This document shows, piece after piece, positions 5,470-63,900 of a DNA stretch of 64,000 nucleotides. The notes beneath the pieces were generated by a model. The model saw only the letters and a list, made by a program, of their open reading frames with translations. It searched no databases and was not told where the DNA came from. The stretch spans positions 4,271-68,270 of the IMG/VR virus record IMGVR_UViG_3300009285_002995. One strand, 5' to 3'. The stretch is from a virus. The translations under genes were made by a program, and so were the position numbers. Position 1 is the first letter of the stretch; every line of letters begins with the position of its first letter.

Positions 5470-8400
5470 ATGAATTTTTGTCATCTGCATGTACACAACG
5501 AGTATAGTATATTAGATGGTTTTGGGAAGGCACAACAATATGCGGCAAGGTTGGCGCAGTTGGGACACAAATTCTGCGCCCTTACAAATCACGGGAATGT
5601 TAACGGAGCAATACAATGGCAAAAGGCTTTAAGCGAAGTAGGGATAACGCCCATTTTCGGATGCGAGCTGTACATAGTCCAAGACGCAGCAGTAAAGCAA
5701 AAAGGGGATGTCAGAAAACACATCACGGCACTCGTGGAAAACGAAGAGGGGTGGCGTAACCTGTTGAAGATGTTAAGCTATGCAAATATTGAAGGATTTT
5801 ATTACAGGCCAAGGGTTGATGTAAAAACTTTTGAGGGGCACATGGGTGGGTTGGTTTTTTTAAGCGGTTGTGCTGATAGTTTGTTGTTGACAAGCTGGGG
5901 GTTGGATGTTGTCTCGAAGCTTTACCACAACAAACAGATTTACTTCGAAGTAATGCCGTTTTGTACAGAACAGCAAAAAACTATCAACAAATTTTGTATT
6001 GACAACTGCGACAATGATATGCTTGTCGCAACAAATGATGTCCACTATATAATGAAAGAAGATGCAGAAGTGCACGATGTAATGCTTGCCATACAGACGA
6101 AGGACAAAATGAGCAGCAAAAGCAGGTGGACGTTTGGCGATGGTGAGCTATATCTTAAAAGCGATTATGAAATGATGAAGGGGTTTAAAGAGCAGGGGGT
6201 ACTAAACAGGGCGCAGTACTTAAATGCAATACAGCAGACGGTACAAATTGCCGAGCGCTGTAAGCAATTTAAAATACTCCGTGTACCTGTTACCCTGCCA
6301 CGCATACCACAGGTTGACGAGGGGAGAGATGAGTTTGCATTTCTACGCAATATTGTTTACCCAAAACTGAACATATTATTAAAGAAAATACCCGAAGACA
6401 AAAAGTGGGAATATGGTGAGCGGCTAGAGGAAGAATTGGAAGCAATTAAGAAGGCTGGGTTTACACGATATTTCCTTATTGTGTGGGAGCTTATACAGTG
6501 GTGTAACAACGAGGGCATAATGGTTGGGCCGGGAAGAGGAAGTGCAGGGGGCAGTTTGGTTGTGTACTTATTGGGGATAACACAGGTAGACCCTATAAAA
6601 CATGGGCTGCTGTTTTTTAGATTCATCAGTCCAGACCGTATTGACCTACCAGATATTGACCTTGACTTTGAGGACACAAAAAGAGAACTGGTGCGCAAAC
6701 ATTTGATTGATCTTTATGGTGAGCACAATGTAGCTTATATCAGTACAGTACAGGAGATGCACGGTCGCAGTGCTATACGTGATGTCGGAAGGGTTTTTGA
6801 CCTACCGGCAAAAGATGTTGATGAGTTTGCCAAAAGCATTGACAAAGGGCTGACAGACAGTACTAATACTGAGGCCGCTGCGCAATTTGCAACCGATCAT
6901 CCAACGCCATATAAAATTGCGTTGCGGTTGGAAGGGCAGCTACGCAGTAGTGGCACACATGCTGCTGCTTGTGTAGTGAGTAATGAAGACCTTACACTTG
7001 GCAACAAAGGGGTCCTTTTAAACGCAAAAAACAATGAACTGGCTATTAACTGGGACAAAGACGATGCCGAGTTTATGGGGCTAATGAAGCTTGACTTGCT
7101 TGGGCTTAAAGAGCTCTCGGTATTAAACAGGGCAAGGAAATTGATAATTGAGAAAGAAAGCAAAACATTTGAATATACCGACATACCACTGGACATACCT
7201 TACGTACTACATGAATTTGCACAAGGGAACACCGTTGGCTGTTTTCAATTTGGCAGCGATGGTATCCGTAAACTGTGCAGAGATGTTGGTGTGAGCAACT
7301 TCGAAGACATTGTTGCTATAAACGCATTGTATAGACCAGGGACAATGCGCAGCGGTATGTTTCGTCAGTACGTTGACGGTAAGCACGGGGTAGCAATACC
7401 TAAAATACACCCAAAGTTTGATGAGATAACCAAAAGCACCTTTGGTGTGGTGGTGTATCAAGAGCAGTTAATGAACGTGACGCACTACGTCGCTGGGTTG
7501 GATTGGGCTACTACCGACAAACTGCGCAAGGTGGTTGCCAAAAGCAAGGGGGCGGCTGAGTTTAATAAGTTTAAAGATATGTTTGTTGCGGGCTGTTACA
7601 AAACAAGCGGTATTGATGAAAACACGGCAGCAAATTATTTTGACAAACTGGCGGCGTTTGCTGGATATGGATTTAATCGATCACATTCTGTACAGTATAG
7701 TATAATCGCCTATTGGGGGATGTGGTTAAAAGTTACACACCCTGCCGAGTTCATAGCCGCATCATTAACCTTTGGTAGCGATTCAAAAACAGGGGTGCTT
7801 GTAGATGAAGCTATACGCTTGGGGTTGAAATTAAAACTGCCAAAATACGGGGTTAGTGATAGCTTTAACTGGGTTGCAAAAGACAACTATCTATACTGCC
7901 CATTCATCGAGGTAAAAGGCATTGGTACAAGCGGTGCTCAAAAAATAAAAGATAGTACAATAGAGTCAAAAAAGCCAAAAAGGTTTTTCACTTCAGGCAC
8001 AGTGGATTTACAAAAAGTGTTGGGTGCGAAAATGTTTGACCTGTTGGTGAAGATAGGAGCGTTTACAGACTATGAAGCAACAGTTGCAGACCTTGAAAAC
8101 ATTAAAGACCTGTTTGACTTTAAGTTCTCCAGTGGTAGTACACCCGAGAAAGCAATTGTAAGGTTGTTTGAGGGCGCTGATGATAAAACACAAACGAAGC
8201 TGTTAGCCGAACTACCCGACATAACAAACGGTGAGTTTGGTGGGTTGAAATTTAAGCTGGGCAAACGGGCCGTGTACCAAAACAAAGAGCTAATTAATTG
8301 TACTGCCTGTGTGTTACGCAAGGGTTGTAATGCGCCTGTGTTGCCGAGTAAAGGGCTGTATAATGTAATGCTGCTGGGGGAAAGCCCGTGGAAAGACGAG

Positions 8401-8829
8401 GACAGAGAGGGTAAAGGATTTGTAGGGAAAACAGGGAAGGAAATACTTTGGCCCGCTCTCCAAAAACACAACCTTCAACGCAATATGTTTCATGTAACTA
8501 ATACAGTGAAATGCGCTCCATTTGCTCAAAAGCTTGATTCAAAAGTTGCTCTACCTTGCCAAAAGTGGTTAACCGAGGAAATACAGCAGTTAAAACCCTG
8601 TCTAATAATGGCTTTTGGTAAGATAAGTTTAAGCTTTTTTGAGGGCGAAGAGGGCAGTATGCTACATTGGAACGGTAGAACTAAGTGGTATGACAAGTGG
8701 AACTGCTGGGTAGTATTTTGCATCCACCCAAGCTATGTAATTTATAAGGGTGGGAAATCGCAGGATTTTGACGATGCTATACAGAAATTTGTTGACCTTA
8801 TGAAGACATTAACTGGTATTATTTTTTAA
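5470..8829 (+). CDS. dnaE: DNA polymerase III alpha subunit (family C) with C-terminal family-4 uracil-DNA glycosylase-like domain
   Basis: PHP motif HLHVHNEYSILDG, GRGSAGGSLV, catalytic PDIDLDF, KLDLLGL, GYGFNRSH; last ~185 aa contain CTAC, GESPWKDEDREGKGFVGKTG, TNTVKC and HPSY. Confidence 0.92.
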   Translation: MNFCHLHVHNEYSILDGFGKAQQYAARLAQLGHKFCALTNHGNVNGAIQWQKALSEVGITPIFGCELYIVQDAAVKQKGDVRKHITALVENEEGWRNLLKMLSYANIEGFYYRPRVDVKTFEGHMGGLVFLSGCADSLLLTSWGLDVVSKLYHNKQIYFEVMPFCTEQQKTINKFCIDNCDNDMLVATNDVHYIMKEDAEVHDVMLAIQTKDKMSSKSRWTFGDGELYLKSDYEMMKGFKEQGVLNRAQYLNAIQQTVQIAERCKQFKILRVPVTLPRIPQVDEGRDEFAFLRNIVYPKLNILLKKIPEDKKWEYGERLEEELEAIKKAGFTRYFLIVWELIQWCNNEGIMVGPGRGSAGGSLVVYLLGITQVDPIKHGLLFFRFISPDRIDLPDIDLDFEDTKRELVRKHLIDLYGEHNVAYISTVQEMHGRSAIRDVGRVFDLPAKDVDEFAKSIDKGLTDSTNTEAAAQFATDHPTPYKIALRLEGQLRSSGTHAAACVVSNEDLTLGNKGVLLNAKNNELAINWDKDDAEFMGLMKLDLLGLKELSVLNRARKLIIEKESKTFEYTDIPLDIPYVLHEFAQGNTVGCFQFGSDGIRKLCRDVGVSNFEDIVAINALYRPGTMRSGMFRQYVDGKHGVAIPKIHPKFDEITKSTFGVVVYQEQLMNVTHYVAGLDWATTDKLRKVVAKSKGAAEFNKFKDMFVAGCYKTSGIDENTAANYFDKLAAFAGYGFNRSHSVQYSIIAYWGMWLKVTHPAEFIAASLTFGSDSKTGVLVDEAIRLGLKLKLPKYGVSDSFNWVAKDNYLYCPFIEVKGIGTSGAQKIKDSTIESKKPKRFFTSGTVDLQKVLGAKMFDLLVKIGAFTDYEATVADLENIKDLFDFKFSSGSTPEKAIVRLFEGADDKTQTKLLAELPDITNGEFGGLKFKLGKRAVYQNKELINCTACVLRKGCNAPVLPSKGLYNVMLLGESPWKDEDREGKGFVGKTGKEILWPALQKHNLQRNMFHVTNTVKCAPFAQKLDSKVALPCQKWLTEEIQQLKPCLIMAFGKISLSFFEGEEGSMLHWNGRTKWYDKWNCWVVFCIHPSYVIYKGGKSQDFDDAIQKFVDLMKTLTGIIF

Positions 8830-15469: not shown

Positions 15470-16055
15470 TTTTCAAACCCTGCGTAGCAAATTAAACGAG
15501 CGCAAAGCGGCAAGAGATGTTATCCTTGGCACTGTTCAGTACAACAAACAACAGCTAAAAGAGATAGGGGCTGCTGTAGATACGTACCTACAGGCACGTA
15601 CAGTTATACAAACAGTGGGCGAGCGCACACAGCAAAACTTGGAGCACGAGCTGGAAAGCATTGGACAACTGGCATTAAACAGTATATTAGATGACCCGCC
15701 AGTGTTCAAGGTTAAATTCGTACAAAGAAGGAATCAAACAGAGTGTGACATAACACTTGACGGACAAGCACCGCTGGATGGTGATGCAGGTGGGGCATTG
15801 GATATAATAAGCTTTGCCCTGCGCATATCCTTTTGGTGTATTAACAAAAGTAGACATGTCTTTATCTTAGATGAACCATTTCGCAACCTATCACCAGATT
15901 TACATAATAAAGCAGGGGAACTATTGAAACAATTGTCTAAAGAGCTGGGGTTGCAATTTATTATAATTAGTCACTCAGTTGATATTAATGAGAATGCAGA
16001 TAGGGTATTCTCAGTACGTAAGACCAACGGAGTATCATTAGTAACTAAACTTTAA
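15459..16055 (+). CDS. SbcC/Rad50-like ATPase, C-terminal half
   Basis: Coiled coil, degenerate signature DAGGALDIISFALR, Walker B ILDEPF, H-switch IISH. Confidence 0.85.
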   Translation: MSGDFQTLRSKLNERKAARDVILGTVQYNKQQLKEIGAAVDTYLQARTVIQTVGERTQQNLEHELESIGQLALNSILDDPPVFKVKFVQRRNQTECDITLDGQAPLDGDAGGALDIISFALRISFWCINKSRHVFILDEPFRNLSPDLHNKAGELLKQLSKELGLQFIIISHSVDINENADRVFSVRKTNGVSLVTKL

Positions 16056-16122
16056 CGAAATTTACGATACGTAAAGGAGGTGATGTAGCACTTAGTATCA
16101 TAACTAACATAGGAGGACACGG

Positions 16123-16521
16123 ATGAGGAAAATACTCATCGTCGCCCTAATATGCTTGGCTATGACCAGTCAAGTTCAGGGAAAAGAGATAAACATAAAA
16201 TGTAGAGTAACAAAATACACAAAAAAAGAGTGCCCTAACAAATACACGGCCTCGGGTAAAATACCAAGAGAAGGGTTTGTTGCATTAAGCAGAGACTTAT
16301 TAACAGAATATAAAATTCCTTGGGAGGCAGAACTTGAAATTAAGGGGCTATTTAAACAGAAGACAAGGTTTTCAGTCGAGGACTCAACAGGCGATAAGAT
16401 CAAGAAGAAGGATGGCACGTTTTTTTACATTAGAAGAACAGTCGACTTCTTCGAAGAACACTACAAAGACAGAAGACTCAGTGGTGAATACTGGGTCACA
16501 ATCAGATGGAGGACAAAATAA
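16123..16521 (+). CDS. secreted 3D-domain (MltA-like) peptidoglycan-active protein
   Basis: Signal peptide; VTKY...TASG...VALSRD...VEDSTG...RTVDFF three-Asp pattern. Confidence 0.7.
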   Translation: MRKILIVALICLAMTSQVQGKEINIKCRVTKYTKKECPNKYTASGKIPREGFVALSRDLLTEYKIPWEAELEIKGLFKQKTRFSVEDSTGDKIKKKDGTFFYIRRTVDFFEEHYKDRRLSGEYWVTIRWRTK

Positions 16522-16543
16522 TGATAATTAATGGAGGTTAGAA

Positions 16544-16867
16544 ATGACTGGTAAAGAAATGGATGACTTTTTAGAAGCACACCAAGAAATAAGATGGGCA
16601 ATAGAAGACGACAAAAAGGCCATTCGTTTTCGCAATGTTAACCTTCAGTGGTACAAAGAGGATGAAAACGCCGTAACAAGGATTACAATGGTTAAGCTTG
16701 ATCAGCTTACCACAAACGAATTGTTGATGGCAATAAATAAAGGTTTAGACGTTGAACAAATAACACGAGTAACTGGGTACTTTGGCAAGGTAAAATCATT
16801 TAATCCGGGGAAGATTGGGGAACTTGTAGACAGAAAAACCCAAATACGTGAGAACAGAAGCTTTTAA
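16544..16867 (+). CDS. stand-alone class III ribonucleotide reductase (NrdD) C-terminal glycyl-radical domain protein
   Basis: ITRVTGYFGKVKSFNPGKIGELVDRK matches the NrdD RxxGY...FNxGKxxExxxR terminus; only 107 aa with its own RBS. Confidence 0.8.
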   Translation: MTGKEMDDFLEAHQEIRWAIEDDKKAIRFRNVNLQWYKEDENAVTRITMVKLDQLTTNELLMAINKGLDVEQITRVTGYFGKVKSFNPGKIGELVDRKTQIRENRSF

Positions 16868-16886
16868 ACACAAAAGATGGACTTGT

Positions 16887-17051
16887 ATGCAATGGATTTG
16901 CTGCAACAACGTGTGGCAATTATTAATCTCTATCAGCTATTCAAACAGGGCATTTTGGAAACCAATTTGCCCTGTTTGTGGTCGCAAAGGAGAAAGTTAT
17001 GATGAAACTTTACGTAAAGCATCATCCAAAAATACGTTGAATTGTGTGTGA
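16887..17051 (+). CDS. small putative zinc-ribbon protein
   Basis: MQWICC...CPVCG; 3' end overlaps the redoxin gene in another frame. Confidence 0.4.
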   Translation: MQWICCNNVWQLLISISYSNRAFWKPICPVCGRKGESYDETLRKASSKNTLNCV

Positions 17052-17280
17052 CGAGGCAGTTAGCATCGTAAAAGGCAAAGACATTGATTGTAGTATTGTG
17101 GCTGTGGATTCTACAATTTTTAGCGAACAGGTCGACGCTCTTGTAGATATTTGTTACTATGGGTTAACAAGTAAAGGTTTAGAAATTGAAGTGCCTATAC
17201 TTGTGGTTGAAGATGATGAAACAGAGAGGTTTGAGATAAAAACTGGGGAAGATGTTATTTTAGCATTAAAAAGTGCGTAA
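16999..17280 (+). CDS. glutaredoxin/NrdH-like redoxin with in-frame TGA (candidate selenoprotein, UxxC)
   Basis: RBS AAGGAGA, ATG 16999, MMKLYVKHHPKIR-TGA(17038-40)-IVCDEA...VPILVVED; in frame with ORF 17044..17280; cis-Pro VP motif of the thioredoxin fold. Confidence 0.7.
17051..17069 (+). promoter_or_regulatory. candidate bacterial SECIS hairpin
   Basis: ACGA-G-GC-[AGTTA]-GC-A-TCGT; loop begins after a 17-nt spacer from the TGA and has GU at loop positions 2-3. Confidence 0.5.
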
Positions 17281-17281
17281 A

Positions 17282-17314
17282 TTTTGTCATTTTACATATA
17301 ATCCAGTGTATAAT
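17282..17314 (+). promoter_or_regulatory. putative phage promoter, copy 2
   Basis: TTTTGTCATTT-N8-ATCCAGTGTATAAT, matching 8833-8865. Confidence 0.65.
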
Positions 17315-17415
17315 GCTATATAGCTGGGTAAGTAAGCACTTATAAAAAATTAAGAGCAAAAACGTCTGGCGCTGCTGGACAACAGAAGTAACAATAGCAG
17401 AATGGGAGTGAAAAT

Positions 17416-17535
17416 ATGTCAGTTTCTATACCTGAAATATTACGAAGAATTGAGTATTTGGAAGACAGAGTAGAAAAACTGGAAAAAAGACTTGAGGAAT
17501 TAATTGAAAAAATAGTCAATTTAAGGCATAAATAA
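17416..17535 (+). CDS. small coiled-coil peptide (39 aa)
   Basis: GGGAG RBS; RRIEYLEDRVEKLEKRLEEL heptads. Confidence 0.45.
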   Translation: MSVSIPEILRRIEYLEDRVEKLEKRLEELIEKIVNLRHK

Positions 17536-17560
17536 AATAATAATATAGTGGGAGGAAAAT

Positions 17561-18346
17561 ATGATAACAAAACTACAGGCACTATTGGAGTCAATGGTTT
17601 TATGGGAGGATATGGCAGAAACTGGGAAGGCTAACAAAAAAGACAGTAAGGTGTGGGACATAAATGGTGGAACCATACCTAGCCGTAGCAATGATTGTCC
17701 CTGCTGTGAGTATGTAATACAACAGGAAGGGGACGTTGAAGATGAGATGTGCAAGAAAAGCTGCCCTGCTTACGCAATATGGGGAAATCAAAGATGTGAT
17801 GCGCGTTCTTCTATTTACCGGAAATGGCGAGAAGCAAATACCTCTGAGGAAAGAAAGTTATACGCAAGCGAGATTGCACAAGGGTTTCGTAGGTTATATG
17901 AAGAAGAATTGTCGTACATCAAACAAAAGGAGAAAAAGGACATGAACAGACCATTTGAAGTAGGCGAACCGGTTTATGATGATGTGTTTATGGAGTGGGG
18001 GGAAGTGGACACGATTACACCAGGGTTGTCTTTCCCGGTAAGAATGAAGGCTCTCTCAAATGAAGTAAGACGTACATATACAGAGGATGGCCGGTATTTA
18101 CTTTCTGACAACCGACCCCAACTTCACCACGCTGACGAGATAGTGAATAATAGGTTGGTGATAGAAGTCCTGCCACCCCCGAAGAAGAAGGTCAAGAAGT
18201 TGGTATGGCTGAATTTCTATAAATTTAGACTACACAAATCGGTGGATGGCCCCTTTGACACCGAAGGAGAAGCAGGGGAAAATATAAGCTCTGCGAAAAA
18301 TTATACTGGCACCTTCCCTGCGGAAATTGAGGAGACAGAGGAATGA
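17561..18346 (+). CDS. two-domain hypothetical protein (Cys-rich N-terminal half)
   Basis: CPCC...C..SCP..C motifs; internal RBS and in-frame ATG at 17942. Confidence 0.6.
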   Translation: MITKLQALLESMVLWEDMAETGKANKKDSKVWDINGGTIPSRSNDCPCCEYVIQQEGDVEDEMCKKSCPAYAIWGNQRCDARSSIYRKWREANTSEERKLYASEIAQGFRRLYEEELSYIKQKEKKDMNRPFEVGEPVYDDVFMEWGEVDTITPGLSFPVRMKALSNEVRRTYTEDGRYLLSDNRPQLHHADEIVNNRLVIEVLPPPKKKVKKLVWLNFYKFRLHKSVDGPFDTEGEAGENISSAKNYTGTFPAEIEETEE

Positions 18347-18962: not shown

Positions 18963-19340
18963 ATGAAAGAAGATTTTCGTTTCATAAGAAAAAGGAAGGG
19001 GAATATTCTACATATATATGACCCCATTTTTAAGATTAACTACTACTATGTGTGTTGCCCGACACATAAGCGATTTCGTGAAATACTAGAAAAGGAAGCA
19101 AACATTACTGGACTTGCCGAGAAGAAAGGAACTGCGGGAGGGTGTGTAGTCAGTTATGATATTGGTGAGGTTTGTTGTATCTGGACAAACAAGAAGTGTG
19201 CTGGCCTTGTGGCACACGAGGTCTTGCACGCAATAACAATGCTAATTCGAGATGGTCACAAAATAGAGTTCAATGACCATACCGAAGAAATGTACTGCCT
19301 TGCGATGGAATATGCTGTCAAGGCGATAATGACAAAATAG
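18963..19340 (+). CDS. putative zinc metallopeptidase-like protein
   Basis: HExxH motif (AHEVLHA) and downstream EE. Confidence 0.55.
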   Translation: MKEDFRFIRKRKGNILHIYDPIFKINYYYVCCPTHKRFREILEKEANITGLAEKKGTAGGCVVSYDIGEVCCIWTNKKCAGLVAHEVLHAITMLIRDGHKIEFNDHTEEMYCLAMEYAVKAIMTK

Positions 19341-19358
19341 AAGTGTAAAGGGGGAGAA

Positions 19359-19532
19359 ATGAAACTGACCTGTAAACGATGTGGTGGTGTCACAAATTCA
19401 GTCTTGTCTGACCATGATTATCATGGCGAGGAAGCAAATTTCTGTTATCTACGATACGAGAATGGTGAGTGGGTAGATGGGTGTGCAAAGAAAGAAGAAA
19501 CCGACCCATCTGTTCTAATAATGGTTAAATGA
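19359..19532 (+). CDS. small CxxC protein (57 aa)
   Basis: GGGGAG RBS; MKLTCKRCGG. Confidence 0.5.
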   Translation: MKLTCKRCGGVTNSVLSDHDYHGEEANFCYLRYENGEWVDGCAKKEETDPSVLIMVK

Positions 19533-19547
19533 TTTAGGGGGTGTGAA

Positions 19548-19874
19548 ATGACCAAGACACAGACACAATACATCTATGGATTACTTGGGCGCTGTTACCA
19601 TGATGAAGCAGATGCTACGCCTTTTAGGGTTGGTGGTAAGCCAGAGATATGCTTGGAGTGTGGATTTGCCTTATATGAGGCGCATAGATTTAATCAAGAA
19701 ATAAATGGCAACGACTTCTTTGCGCTGGTGGGGGTGCTGGATGATATTGCATTGTCGTCCATAGAGGGGAAATTAATTAATGAATACCCGCATCTATTGC
19801 TATGGAAGATGCAGCAACCAGACTTCATCGAGCGTTTCTGCATTGAGGTCTGTAAGATGAAAGGGGTGGAGTGA
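19548..19874 (+). CDS. hypothetical protein (GxCxH...CxxCG family)
   Basis: LGRCYHDE...CLECG; probable paralogue of 18343..18708. Confidence 0.6.
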   Translation: MTKTQTQYIYGLLGRCYHDEADATPFRVGGKPEICLECGFALYEAHRFNQEINGNDFFALVGVLDDIALSSIEGKLINEYPHLLLWKMQQPDFIERFCIEVCKMKGVE

Positions 19875-60215: not shown

Positions 60216-60743
60216 TTATTTTACTGCTTCTATATTTAAACTCATTAGTAAACCAAACGTTTTGTCCATATGTGGTAAATATGCTTGTGAGTAATCGTCG
60301 TACATAAAATGTTCAGTTTTCTTCCAGTCCCAATCTCTATAACATATAAATCCTGCATCGCCAATAAATTTTGCCATACTATCCTTGTCAAACACTATAT
60401 GGTGGTCGTTAAATAATGACTCTTGCCCACCATAAAGTAAACCCATTAACTCATTTAAATCGCCAGTACTTCTATATCTCTCTACGATTGCGGTAAAATT
60501 AGGTACTGACAATCTTAATATCCCACCTCTCTTTAATAAACTATACCAATATGTCAACACTGCTCTTACTGTATGTCTATTAAAGTGTTCAAGTACGTGC
60601 GAGGCATATATAATATCAAAACTCTCCATAGGATATGGTATTGCAATAGCATTGCAATATAGATCTGCTTTATTCAAAGAACTAATGTCTAAATTTAACC
60701 ACCCAGGAATATAACATTTGCCACACCCAATATGTAGTTTCAT
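60216..60743 (-). CDS. SAM-dependent methyltransferase (type 11-like)
   Basis: LHIGCG, GWLNLD, SHVLEHF, LKRGGILRLSVP. Confidence 0.85.
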   Translation of the reverse strand: MKLHIGCGKCYIPGWLNLDISSLNKADLYCNAIAIPYPMESFDIIYASHVLEHFNRHTVRAVLTYWYSLLKRGGILRLSVPNFTAIVERYRSTGDLNELMGLLYGGQESLFNDHHIVFDKDSMAKFIGDAGFICYRDWDWKKTEHFMYDDYSQAYLPHMDKTFGLLMSLNIEAVK

Positions 60744-62029
60744 TTTCTTAGTTCCCTACTCCTATCCCCTATTACATCTTTTAAATAATTATATCTATCT
60801 ACAACCTTTTTATCATTGCATTGGTATACACTTCCTTGTTTTCCTATTGTGTGATAATTACTAAAATCAGTATTTTTATCTATTTTGTACTCATATTTTT
60901 CTGGGTTTTCCCAAACATCACATCCAGGGAAAGGTTGAAAAATATGCAACCCAAAAGTATCTACGTCTGGGTTAGTTTTAATAAAATTTGCTGTAGCCTC
61001 AATATCTTCATCGGTCTCAGTAGGTAAACCAACCATTAATTGACCGTTTATTTTTAAGCCAGCGTTAACAGCGCTCTCTATTGCCTTATTACCTTGTTCT
61101 ACTGTTGCCCTCTTATTCATAAGTTTTAATAGTCTATTACTACCAGTCTCAAAACCTATTGCAAGAGATAGACAACCGGCTTTCTTCATCAACAAAAGAA
61201 GATCAATATCTGTTTTATCTACTCTTGTTAAACAAAACCATTTCATATCTACCTTATTATCAATCAACAGATTACATATATTTCTAACTCTATCATAATC
61301 TAATAAGAAAGTGTCATCTAAAATATTAATCATACCTACGCCAAATTTATTACGCAGGTATACTATTTCATCATAAACATTTTGAGAGCTTACTAACCTA
61401 ACTTTTCCTCCGTGCATTTTATTACTAGCACAAAAAGCACAGTTAAAAGCACACCCCCTACCAGTAATAATAGATGCCTCAGGTAGATTGGCTAAATAAC
61501 CAAATGTTCTAGGCACTAAATAACTAAAGTAATCTATTGTTTCCCTGTCTGGGAATGGGAGAAGGTCTACGTTACATAAACAATTATTTGGTTTATATTC
61601 AAATCTAGTTTTTATACCATCTATTCTGCTATAAATAATACCGGACATTAGTTGTAATAATGGCAGTTCTCCCTCGCCTACGACACAGGCGTCAGCAAGT
61701 GTGTTAATTAGAATATGGTCTGGGTATGTAGTAGCATGAACACCACCAACTATAACCAATTTATCAGGTTCTCTAATCTTTAATTTTCTAATTATCTTCT
61801 CAATATAAATATACTGAGGGCTAACCCCTGTTACACCATAAATATCTCCTACTGGTATATACCAATCCTCTTCTTTAAGACTAGAAAGGTCACAAACAAC
61901 AACCTCGCATTCCTTATTATTCGCCTTTAAATAAGAAGATAGATAAAGAACACCCATCATAGGTATGTCTCTATCACTAATCAACCAAGGGCTAGGTGGG
62001 ATTATTAATACCAGTTTCATTTTATGCAA
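60740..62029 (-). CDS. cobalamin-dependent (class B) radical SAM enzyme
   Basis: B12-binding N-terminus (GVLYL, VGGVHAT, VGEGE), RGCAFNCAFC, GFETGS, MVGLPTET. Confidence 0.9.
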   Translation of the reverse strand: MHKMKLVLIIPPSPWLISDRDIPMMGVLYLSSYLKANNKECEVVVCDLSSLKEEDWYIPVGDIYGVTGVSPQYIYIEKIIRKLKIREPDKLVIVGGVHATTYPDHILINTLADACVVGEGELPLLQLMSGIIYSRIDGIKTRFEYKPNNCLCNVDLLPFPDRETIDYFSYLVPRTFGYLANLPEASIITGRGCAFNCAFCASNKMHGGKVRLVSSQNVYDEIVYLRNKFGVGMINILDDTFLLDYDRVRNICNLLIDNKVDMKWFCLTRVDKTDIDLLLLMKKAGCLSLAIGFETGSNRLLKLMNKRATVEQGNKAIESAVNAGLKINGQLMVGLPTETDEDIEATANFIKTNPDVDTFGLHIFQPFPGCDVWENPEKYEYKIDKNTDFSNYHTIGKQGSVYQCNDKKVVDRYNYLKDVIGDRSRELRK

Positions 62030-62981
62030 ACTCGTTAAATGTAGTTTCTGTAAGAACGTCTTCTAATACTATTTGTTGTTTAACATATTTACAATATGAA
62101 CACTCTATCTTTTTTGGTTGCAGTGCTTCAGCACTAGAATAAAAATTCTTTACTTCATCATATCTACATATTTTTGAGCCTGAAAATATTTTACTTTTGT
62201 TTTCTACAGCAAGTTCACTACTTGGACAAGCATAAACATTCCCGTCCGTATATAAACATGGTTTAATCATAAAAATACGACAATCGGTATTTGGTCTAAT
62301 AGTATCTATGTTAAAATCAGATAAAAACACATACTGATTATTTTTATACCCTGCCAATAATTCCCTTAACATATCTACATTGTCGTTTATAGATTTTACT
62401 GGGACAATACAATCTGGTGCCACCCTACACGGTATTTTAAACGAATTAGCTATTGAAATAACATTATCAAAAATATCTTTTGTAGACATTTCATTCCAAA
62501 TATAACAAAACGTAACAGTAGTACCGGATTTTAATATTCCTTCTACGTTAACAGTAGGTAAATAATCTAAAACATTTAAAGATAATCTAACCCAGTCACA
62601 ATATTCCCAACATTCTACCTTGTCATAATCTATTCCGTTTGTATTTACACCAATTTTCATCCCAAGTTTATGCAAAAAGGAAATGTACTCATTTATATAA
62701 GGATATAAGGTTGGGTCTCCACCACCAGTTATTTCTACTGCTCTTGTACCTATAGAGTAAAATTGCAATATACCTTCTGTAAGTTTGTCAAAACTGAGGT
62801 CTAATGTTTTATCCTCTCTGTTTTTAAAGCAACAATAAGCACAATTTAGCTGGCATCTGTGGGTAGGCATAGTATGAACCATAATAGGAGTCACCTTACC
62901 AAATTGTAAATCACTTAATATATCTAAATGTTTAAACAATTTTACATTATTTGACGTGCAACTAAATTTTATTTGACTCAT
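62022..62981 (-). CDS. radical SAM enzyme with SPASM/twitch-like C-terminus
   Basis: CQLNCAYC, TGGGDPT, NTNG; C...DGNVYAC...CSYC. Confidence 0.88.
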   Translation of the reverse strand: MSQIKFSCTSNNVKLFKHLDILSDLQFGKVTPIMVHTMPTHRCQLNCAYCCFKNREDKTLDLSFDKLTEGILQFYSIGTRAVEITGGGDPTLYPYINEYISFLHKLGMKIGVNTNGIDYDKVECWEYCDWVRLSLNVLDYLPTVNVEGILKSGTTVTFCYIWNEMSTKDIFDNVISIANSFKIPCRVAPDCIVPVKSINDNVDMLRELLAGYKNNQYVFLSDFNIDTIRPNTDCRIFMIKPCLYTDGNVYACPSSELAVENKSKIFSGSKICRYDEVKNFYSSAEALQPKKIECSYCKYVKQQIVLEDVLTETTFNEFA

Positions 62982-63900
62982 AATTTTCCCTATAATCTTT
63001 GTATGTTTGTACTAATCCGTCCTCTAGTTTTTTTGTATAATGCCAACCAAGGTCGTTAATCTTTTTAACATCAAGTAACTTTTGATAAGTACCGTCCGGT
63101 TTGCTAAAATCCCATTCTATATTTAAAGAAGGGCAAATAATACTTTTCAACAACATAACTAAATCAAAAATACTTATATCTTCCCCAGTACCAACATTTA
63201 TTGTTTCTATACCATCATAATTATTCATTAAGAATAAACATGCTTCGGATAAATCATCAACAAATAAAAATTCCCTCTTTGGTTTCCCAGTGCCCCAACA
63301 AACCATAGCACCATTGTCTTTCATGCATCTATACATACGTTGTATAAGCGCCGGGATAACGTGAGAGTTTTTATCATTGTAAGTATCACCAAACCCATAT
63401 AAATTAGTAGGCATCGCAGATATAAAATTGCAACCATATTGTTTTCTATATAATTTGCACATCATAATACCTGCTATTTTAGCTATAGCATACCCATCAT
63501 TAGTACTCTCTAAAGGACCAGTAAGTAAATATTCCTCCTTCATTGGTTGAGGACATTCTTTTGGATATATACAAGAAGAACCTAAAAATAAAAGTTTATT
63601 AACACCAAACCTATATGCGTTATGAATTACATTGGTTTCCATAACCAAATTTTCATATATAAAATCGGCAGATAAAGTGTCGTTTGCATAAATACCCCCT
63701 ACTTTAGCAGCAGCACAAAATACATATTCAGGTTTTTCATTTTTAAAAAAATATTCAACAGCTTTTTGATTTAAAAGGTCTAATTCGGCATGAGTTAAAG
63801 TTATTATATTCTTATATTCTTTTATAAGAAGAGATCTTACTATTGCACTCCCAACCATGCCTGTACTACCAGTAATAAATATTCTACTATTTTTTTTCAT
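62962..63900 (-). CDS. fcl: GDP-L-fucose synthase
   Basis: GSTGMVGS, AAAKVGGIYAN, LGSSCIYPK, YAIAK, MPTNLYG, SHVIPAL, WGTGKPKREF. Confidence 0.93.
   Translation of the reverse strand: MKKNSRIFITGSTGMVGSAIVRSLLIKEYKNIITLTHAELDLLNQKAVEYFFKNEKPEYVFCAAAKVGGIYANDTLSADFIYENLVMETNVIHNAYRFGVNKLLFLGSSCIYPKECPQPMKEEYLLTGPLESTNDGYAIAKIAGIMMCKLYRKQYGCNFISAMPTNLYGFGDTYNDKNSHVIPALIQRMYRCMKDNGAMVCWGTGKPKREFLFVDDLSEACLFLMNNYDGIETINVGTGEDISIFDLVMLLKSIICPSLNIEWDFSKPDGTYQKLLDVKKINDLGWHYTKKLEDGLVQTYKDYRENYESNKI

Follow-up and report, generated by a model that had tools for sequence, protein, structure and literature searches.

Selenocysteine (Sec) insertion is, to our knowledge, regarded as a cellular trait. 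In the available part of a 2026 review of the prokaryotic selenoproteome (PMC13188914), Grx (PF00462, UxxC) figures among the prokaryotic selenoproteins, and glutaredoxins and thioredoxins with a UxxC motif are known bacterial selenoproteins. The gene considered here, at positions 16999-17280, lies in a 64,000-nucleotide stretch of DNA (hereafter the window) that makes up most of a 68,270-base IMG/VR virus record (IMGVR_UViG_3300009285_002995; CheckV completeness 69%), which comes from a groundwater metagenome and belongs to an uncultured phage. We tentatively propose, with belief and doubt nearly in balance, that this gene codes for a Sec-containing (U-I-V-C) glutaredoxin/NrdH-like redoxin, Sec insertion being predicted at an in-frame TGA. 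Such a protein would be like the bacterial selenoprotein Grx in its small thioredoxin fold, in a U/CxxC motif close to the N-terminus whose leading residue is proposed to be Sec, in the stem-loop that follows the UGA within the open reading frame (ORF) and in the existence of Cys-containing homologues; it is unlike that protein in falling outside the Pfam family, in being phage-borne and in having a hairpin far weaker than the Sec insertion sequences (SECIS) tested, Sec itself being here only proposed. With the NrdH-redoxins (E. coli 1h75, C. glutamicum 4fiw, M. tuberculosis 4hs1) it shares a length of about 75-100 residues, the CxxC motif (intact in its full-length homologues), a glutaredoxin-like fold and a neighbourhood related to ribonucleotide reductase, represented here by an NrdD-type glycyl-radical domain, whereas in the known NrdH proteins the residue is Cys. 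Phage T4 glutaredoxin/thioredoxin NrdC (1aaz) is likewise a phage-encoded small CxxC redoxin, but it has two cysteines and no UGA. The mechanism proposed is not novel in kind, being that of the ordinary bacterial SelB/SECIS system; the carrier (a phage), the anoxic groundwater habitat and the orphan redoxin family would be new. The elements of the gene on which this proposal is built are the following.

16987-16993, plus strand: Shine-Dalgarno sequence AAGGAGA, 5 nt upstream of the ATG at 16999
16999-17280, plus strand: glutaredoxin-like gene; 93 codons followed by TAA, codon 14 being an in-frame TGA (from translation and homologue alignment)
17038-17040, plus strand: TGA, candidate Sec codon of U-I-V-C, aligned with the first Cys of the homologues' CxxC
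17044-17046, plus strand: GTG, start of the database gene call (78-aa product) and possible re-initiation site if the TGA terminates
17047-17049, plus strand: TGT for residue 17, the second Cys of U/CxxC (from translation and alignment)
17191-17196, plus strand: codons of Val65-Pro66, before strand beta-3, invariant in six of six family members

The gene opens with ATGATG (16999-17004), and its frame comprises 13 codons (MMKLYVKHHPKIR), the TGA at 17038-40, 79 codons that begin with ATT GTG TGT (I-V-C, translated as IVCDEAV...) and the TAA at 17278-80, so that the read-through product has 93 residues. The original prediction, made from the letters of the window, had called attention to the ribosome-binding site AAGGAGA in front of this ATG, to the TGA and to the 93-residue read-through, and all of these features are where it had placed them. 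It had likewise remarked that the GTG at 17044, from which the database protein (P0002, beginning with V) is called, has no ribosome-binding site: the Shine-Dalgarno motif is indeed absent from this GTG, as it is from the ATG at 16887, and strong at ATG 16999. A Shine-Dalgarno core precedes 45 of 77 listed starts in the window, which are those of 76 crude genes together with alternatives.

A phmmer search of 1.84 billion representative proteins yielded six proteins at E <= 0.001, namely the window's own call and five relatives, all of them metagenomic singleton clusters without accessions, and a profile search returned the identical six. Two of the relatives are full-length, P0003 (103 aa, E 9e-9, 37% identity to the window protein) and P0006 (134 aa, E 2.6e-4); their N-termini read MLILFVKKYGNFA-C-VAC and MNHLFVRKYGKFI-C-QGC, which puts a CxxC motif at residues 14-17 in both (CVAC in P0003, CQGC in P0006). 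With X written at the TGA, BLASTP aligned residues 1-60 of the window protein without gaps to each of them, Met1 to Met1, with X14 opposite Cys14 in both cases and with both flanks of the TGA conserved. This ungapped alignment, with Cys opposite the TGA, argues for a start at 16999 and for the TGA standing in place of the first cysteine of CxxC. As far as sequence can tell, the true start of the gene is ATG 16999, not GTG 17044, and the TGA is at the place in a thioredoxin-fold CxxC that Sec classically occupies. Homologues with Cys or TGA at this position were the support for which the original prediction had proposed to look, and both full-length ones have Cys there, within CxxC. The 13-residue peptide upstream of the TGA, scored against the N-termini of the homologues, is equalled by only 15 of the 69,406 stop-free six-frame 13-mers of the window (p ~2e-4), and among the 1,371 that begin with M a single one scores as high, the peptide itself. 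Downstream, the window protein holds the family residue in all 11 invariant columns of the six-sequence alignment, itself included, and V65, P66, I67, L68 and V69 are invariant in 6/6 family members; the 'VP' at 65-66, just before strand beta-3, occupies what we take to be the position of the thioredoxin-fold cis-proline.

The fold of the family is best seen in P0003, whose AlphaFold model (predicted local distance difference test, pLDDT, 85.2; predicted template modelling score, pTM, 0.78) has the order beta-alpha-beta-alpha-beta-beta-alpha, with strands at residues 2-6, 31-35, 67-71 and 81-85 and helices at 15-26, 41-62 and 87-101. Helix 15-26 of this model is directly preceded by Cys14, and Cys17 belongs to its first turn. 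Among the top matches listed by Foldseek for P0003 are Spx, NrdH, N-terminal domains of GST, glutaredoxins and T4 glutaredoxin, all of the thioredoxin fold, and VIA-align superposed P0003 on the listed fold matches with Z between 8.3 and 10.5. These include a glutaredoxin/FDR fusion (Z 9.9), the clostridial cGrx1 (Z 9.0 to 7c12 and 8.6 to 7c10) and the NrdH-redoxins, which are matched over nearly whole chains at Z 8.7-9.4 (C. glutamicum NrdH, Z 9.4, 76 aligned residues, that is, the whole 76-residue chain; E. coli NrdH, Z 8.7); T4 NrdC is aligned over its whole 87-residue chain at Z 8.6. On the strength of the model, the redoxin family is of the glutaredoxin/NrdH-type thioredoxin fold. The window protein's own model is poor (pLDDT 56.8) and its Foldseek matches are uninformative, and its predicted fold rests on the 37% identity to the modelled P0003. 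At the CxxC columns the window gene reads TGA-I-V-C, which makes up a whole motif only when the TGA is translated as Sec or Cys; the corresponding motif of NrdH is presumably CVQC, as compared with (U)IVC here.

Curated domain models capture this family poorly. In Pfam the window protein has no match, PF00462 included, and for this glutaredoxin model two of the six family members match at E <= 10, P0003 with 15.7 bits and P0006 with 17.6 bits, below the cut-off of 22.9. The NCBIfam NrdH model PRK10329 matches P0003 alone (E 0.15; 12.1 bits as against a cut-off of 131), the window protein being unmatched. The family is, then, below the curated cut-offs of both PF00462 and the NrdH model. PHROG 22 ('thioredoxin domain') is matched by P0003 (E 1.1e-4) and P0006 (E 1.7e-3) and not reached by the window protein, whose single PHROG match is to an unnamed PHROG at E 0.022. 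A profile search of Protein Data Bank sequences gave weak, meaningless matches only, the best being a designed TIM barrel at E 0.014. In the ESM Atlas the clusters nearest to P0003 include viral 'Glutaredoxin domain' proteins at a cosine of 0.92, which serves as a lead only.

Further relatives were sought widely. Neither tblastn nor blastn against 50,697 phage records gave a match, a word-index protein search matched the window's own call alone, and no longer, fused forms of the redoxin were found. Scans of IMG/VR, for which the queries were the protein, the family alignment, P0003 and P0004, both neighbouring ORFs and an exact 39-nt pattern, returned no true relative, and two metagenome scans for relatives returned none. 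One match of the IMG/VR scans was rejected as due to chance, being a response-regulator receiver domain that has only 'PILVVEDDE' in common with the redoxin. A six-frame search of 401 genomes from the phylum of one Desulfobulbia genome found no relative either, an empty answer that is uninformative there. The family is a very rare, phage-associated and divergent one of glutaredoxin/NrdH-like redoxins.

The same gene could have arisen in a simpler way, by a recent nonsense mutation that turned TGT or TGC into TGA in an accessory redoxin gene, which would leave a young pseudogene or remnant accompanied by a chance hairpin. A single transversion suffices for this, and we regard it as a serious possibility, if one somewhat short of evenly likely. 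Translation would then stop after 13 residues or, at best, re-initiate at GTG 17044, which sits 3 nt after the TGA as this explanation would have it, to produce a 78-residue fragment without strand beta-1 and the first cysteine; however, as judged from the P0003 model, a fragment lacking this central strand is unlikely to fold. The position of the stop also speaks against chance: the gene holds 36 one-step nonsense paths, of which the Cys14 codon accounts for one, so that a random nonsense mutation would fall on that codon about 3% of the time, and at this position alone would one expect Sec. Nor is there any other decay, the Shine-Dalgarno sequence, the ATG, the N-terminal homology and the 11 invariant residues being intact, and besides the redoxin gene no interrupted gene was seen among the approximately 76 genes of the window.

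Whether the TGA is real in the first place can be judged from groundwater metagenome runs that hold the stretch. A Logan contig from the probable source sample, representing a second assembly of the same reads, spans 15973-17500 with 0 differences from the window and keeps the TGA. This argues against an assembler artefact, though the sample is not independent: the two datasets in which the stretch is found whole are both from the probable source sample, and the second sample has pieces of the phage but none over 16999-17280, so that independent confirmation of the TGA was not obtained there. No RNA datasets holding the stretch are listed. That the true codon is TGT or TGC, misread in sequencing or assembly or displaced by a minority allele that the assembler fixed, would be easiest to imagine in a metagenome assembly of such modest depth (mean word depth 7.7 on the contig). 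Even so, a consensus substitution error is presumably improbable at that depth, there is no homopolymer at the site and the second assembler agreed throughout, and we give this explanation almost no weight.

The phage is on the standard code. Stop usage over the 76 crude genes is 40 TAA, 23 TGA and 13 TAG, and under code 11 the long ORFs, the largest of 2,713 codons, are unbroken. TGA ends 23 of the 76 crude genes, and therefore a genome-wide reassignment of TGA (code 4 or 25) was rejected; the codon is otherwise a normal stop, and the TGA at 17038-40 is the sole TGA that interrupts a Shine-Dalgarno-led reading frame on the coding strand. UGA is the leakiest stop codon in bacteria, and read-through could take place without selenium, with a near-cognate Trp or Cys tRNA, or else a suppressor of the host, decoding the UGA inefficiently, with little full-length protein made and possibly as a means of low expression. 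The conservation of the frame on both sides of the TGA is as expected under such read-through, and the hairpin described below is not strong enough to make much of a case for SelB instead. However, a Trp in place of the first CxxC cysteine would destroy a redox site that is retained in both full-length homologues, the record encodes no tRNA, and a strong suppressor would be costly since so many of the genes terminate in TGA; read-through of this kind appears highly improbable.

The reading with Sec calls for a SECIS downstream of the UGA, for which two nested structures come into consideration.

17051-17069, plus strand: candidate SECIS hairpin, ACGA-G-GC / AGUUA / GC-A-UCGU, with 4 bp, a 1x1 mismatch, 2 bp and the loop AGUUA
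17042-17078, plus strand: extended stem-loop of the minimum-free-energy (MFE) fold, which adds a lower stem UUGU/GCAA and one further pair around the hairpin

The hairpin, with its loop beginning 17 nt 3' of the TGA and with G at loop position 2 followed by U, was confirmed as originally described. Its free energy is -4.5 kcal/mol alone, -9.9 in the 53-nt context and -9.2 for 17042-17078 alone. Bacterial SECIS, by the limits given in the available part of the review cited above (PMC13188914), have 3-9 nt in the loop, 4-16 bp in the stem, G as the first or second loop nucleotide, a spacing of 16-37 nt and an MFE <= -7.5. We applied them as a loose test, which tolerates a mismatch in the stem, and as a strict test, which takes four contiguous pairs under the loop; the candidate passes the former and fails the latter. 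Ten positive controls were used, consisting of seven Sec TGAs (one in SelD and six in FdhA) from three SelB-bearing bacterial genomes, recognised by homology and by a single internal TGA, together with E. coli fdhF, fdnG and fdoG. All seven genomic controls pass both tests at 53 nt (6/7 at 60 nt), as opposed to none of the four other TGAs in their read-through frames, and the E. coli controls pass the loose test in three and the strict test in two of three cases, fdhF failing the latter, which makes 10/10 loose and 9/10 strict overall. The comparison with fdhF is the closest one, since in both the stem-loop lies directly 3' of the UGA (loop spacing 17 nt here and 18 nt in fdhF), G occurs in loop positions 1-2, the loose test only is passed and the run of pairs under the loop is short and broken by a mismatch or bulge (two pairs here, three in fdhF); the two differ in that fdhF forms 15 pairs at -14.9 kcal/mol in the 53-nt test, the candidate 6 pairs at -9.9. 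Among 4,000 synonymous recodings of the gene, 8.3% reach an equally good fold, and the loose test is passed by 8.8%. Around the gene, Rfam gave two chance-level matches, the SECIS family not being among them.

Several of the results weigh against Sec insertion, first of all those on the hairpin itself. It is weak, with 6 bp in all and 2 bp directly below the loop, while 10/10 controls have at least 7 bp and free energies of -14.6 to -23.4 kcal/mol, so that the candidate is weaker than each of them. Of the TGA triplets of the record, 250/2,118 (11.8%) pass the loose test and 170/2,118 (8.0%) the strict one; against 200 dinucleotide shuffles, of which 31 fold no worse, the z-score of the hairpin is -0.92. 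The hairpin is thus compatible with a SECIS and nearly neutral as evidence: what had been called SECIS-like does fall within the published limits once the mismatch is allowed, but it is statistically undistinctive and weaker than every real SECIS tested, as a chance hairpin beside a nonsense mutation would be. The record, at its 69% completeness, has no tRNA, and selA, selB and selD were not found in it. Within the family, the locus is a singleton and the sole TGA-bearing member among the sequences inspected, no relative having a conserved TGA, which again suits a fresh mutation. CxxC is absent from three of the five homologues as called (P0004, P0005 and P0007), and therefore the motif is not essential to the whole family; these unstable N-termini, too, count in favour of a nonsense mutation. 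P0004 and P0005 give the impression of a 5' truncation, and helix alpha-1 is apparently missing from P0007. As a separate observation, two of the relatives without CxxC look truncated at or near the point where the TGA truncated the window's own call.

The literature points in the same direction. A full-text search, with supplements outside its range, found no published phage selenoprotein, and the part of PMC13188914 at hand has 0 mentions of phage or virus, both of which sit well with a nonsense mutation. For the metalloprotein and selenoprotein families examined in the Global Ocean Sampling (GOS) survey, three metalloprotein families apart, the part of that paper at hand (PMC9402790) gives no or very few viral sequences. 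The proposal from which this work set out, a phage Sec redoxin made with the host's SelABC machinery, stands in part: Cys homologues, a thioredoxin fold, the presence of the TGA in the re-assembly and the use of TGA as a stop elsewhere speak for it, but the hairpin fails to distinguish itself and a second TGA-bearing member was not seen in the family.

If Sec is indeed inserted, the ribosome would initiate at ATG 16999 behind the strong Shine-Dalgarno sequence, the stem-loop 13-31 nt downstream would recruit host SelB and Sec-tRNA(Sec) at the UGA (17038-40), Sec would be incorporated, and translation would run on to the TAA at 17280 to release a selenol/thiol redoxin. The SECIS function of the hairpin, the Sec-competent host and the physiological role are all inferred. 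The redoxin would probably serve anaerobic nucleotide or radical-enzyme metabolism during infection, in view of the free NrdD-type glycyl-radical domain that adjoins it and of the radical-SAM enzymes encoded elsewhere in the phage. In a more elaborate version, which we consider unlikely, the phage of an anaerobic groundwater bacterium would make a UxxC redoxin through host SelB and a minimal in-ORF hairpin, and this redoxin, the NrdD-type domain and a cysteine-rich ORF would form a selenium-dependent module supporting anaerobic ribonucleotide reduction or another glycyl-radical enzyme. Were Sec insertion confirmed, a phage would be drawing on the SelABCD system of its host for an auxiliary redox enzyme, its host range would be tied to selenium metabolism, and such genes would be truncated by standard gene callers, as happened in the database call at GTG 17044. 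Should the TGA prove to be a fresh nonsense mutation, what is left is ordinary, in the main a corrected gene start and an identified family.

Two ORFs lie next to or across the start of the redoxin gene.

16544-16867, plus strand: upstream neighbour, a 107-aa ORF with a match to the glycyl-radical C-terminus of NrdD (Pfam, NCBIfam, PHROG)
16887-17051, plus strand: cysteine-rich ORF of 54 codons (C..CC...CPVC) in another frame, overlapping the first 53 nt of the redoxin gene

The former matches Pfam NRDD at E 5e-05 (22.6 bits, under the cut-off of 26.2) and PHROG 487 at E 0.0032, and its last ~30 residues match the NCBIfam NrdD model at positions 550-580 of 581 (E 9.9e-05). No catalytic NrdD body is found near it, and it may be a free 'spare-part' glycyl-radical domain. 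The latter is a candidate gene only, with no Shine-Dalgarno sequence and no meaningful family match in Pfam, PHROG or NCBIfam, and its overlap with the redoxin gene includes both the TGA and the base of the hairpin. The stop of this ORF is crossed by a (TG)4 run (17043-50). An extra TG in this run that would fuse the cysteine-rich ORF to the redoxin frame is disfavoured by the N-terminal homology of the frame beginning at ATG 16999; the fusion would yield CxC, not CxxC, and no strand beta-1.

The phage as a whole is a tailed one, with genes for a DnaE-type polymerase, a clamp loader and gp32-like, RecA-like and SbcCD-like proteins, and with long structural genes and a sugar/radical-SAM gene block on the opposite strand. 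No close cultured relative was found, its DnaE polymerase being at most 33.5% identical to that of any cultured phage. Among the matches listed for its GDP-sugar epimerase, identities of 44-59% are to genes of mixed phyla (Cyclobacteriaceae 59%, Desulfobulbia/Desulfobacterales 53-58%, Nitrospirales 51%, and others), so that neither the polymerase nor the epimerase assigns a host. SelB is over the cut-off in three of five genomes hand-picked from the best 80 epimerase matches, which does not identify the host. Frequent strong Shine-Dalgarno sequences, the radical-SAM genes and the NrdD-type neighbour suggest a Shine-Dalgarno-using anaerobe as host. On the strand of the structural genes, radical-SAM enzymes, some of them B12-binding, are encoded at 60740-62981, next to a gene for an NAD-dependent sugar epimerase/dehydratase (62962-63900), a block that suggests glycan tailoring and an anaerobic host.

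Some other features of the phage deserve mention. The polymerase gene at 5470-8829 encodes a DnaE-type protein with a C-terminal domain of the uracil-DNA glycosylase superfamily (Pfam UDG, E 6.7e-20, residues 965-1106). The source sample also contains a 1,060-nt contig of a diverged relative, which shows 29 differences over 17558-17717, has 230 nt replaced by 224 others within 17558-17989 and is unlike the window upstream of 17558. This contig matches only from 17558 on, and therefore the sister phage shares the downstream gene; at 80% likeness it has no match to the redoxin locus. Finally, the original prediction had cautioned that two other in-frame stops occur in the window, and these were not found as such: the series at 18963-19874 consists of three separate small genes in one reading frame with TAG and TGA between them, and its reading as one interrupted gene was rejected, each of the three having its own G-rich ribosome-binding site. 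The product of the first has a metalloprotease-like HEVLH motif, and those of the second and third are rich in cysteine.

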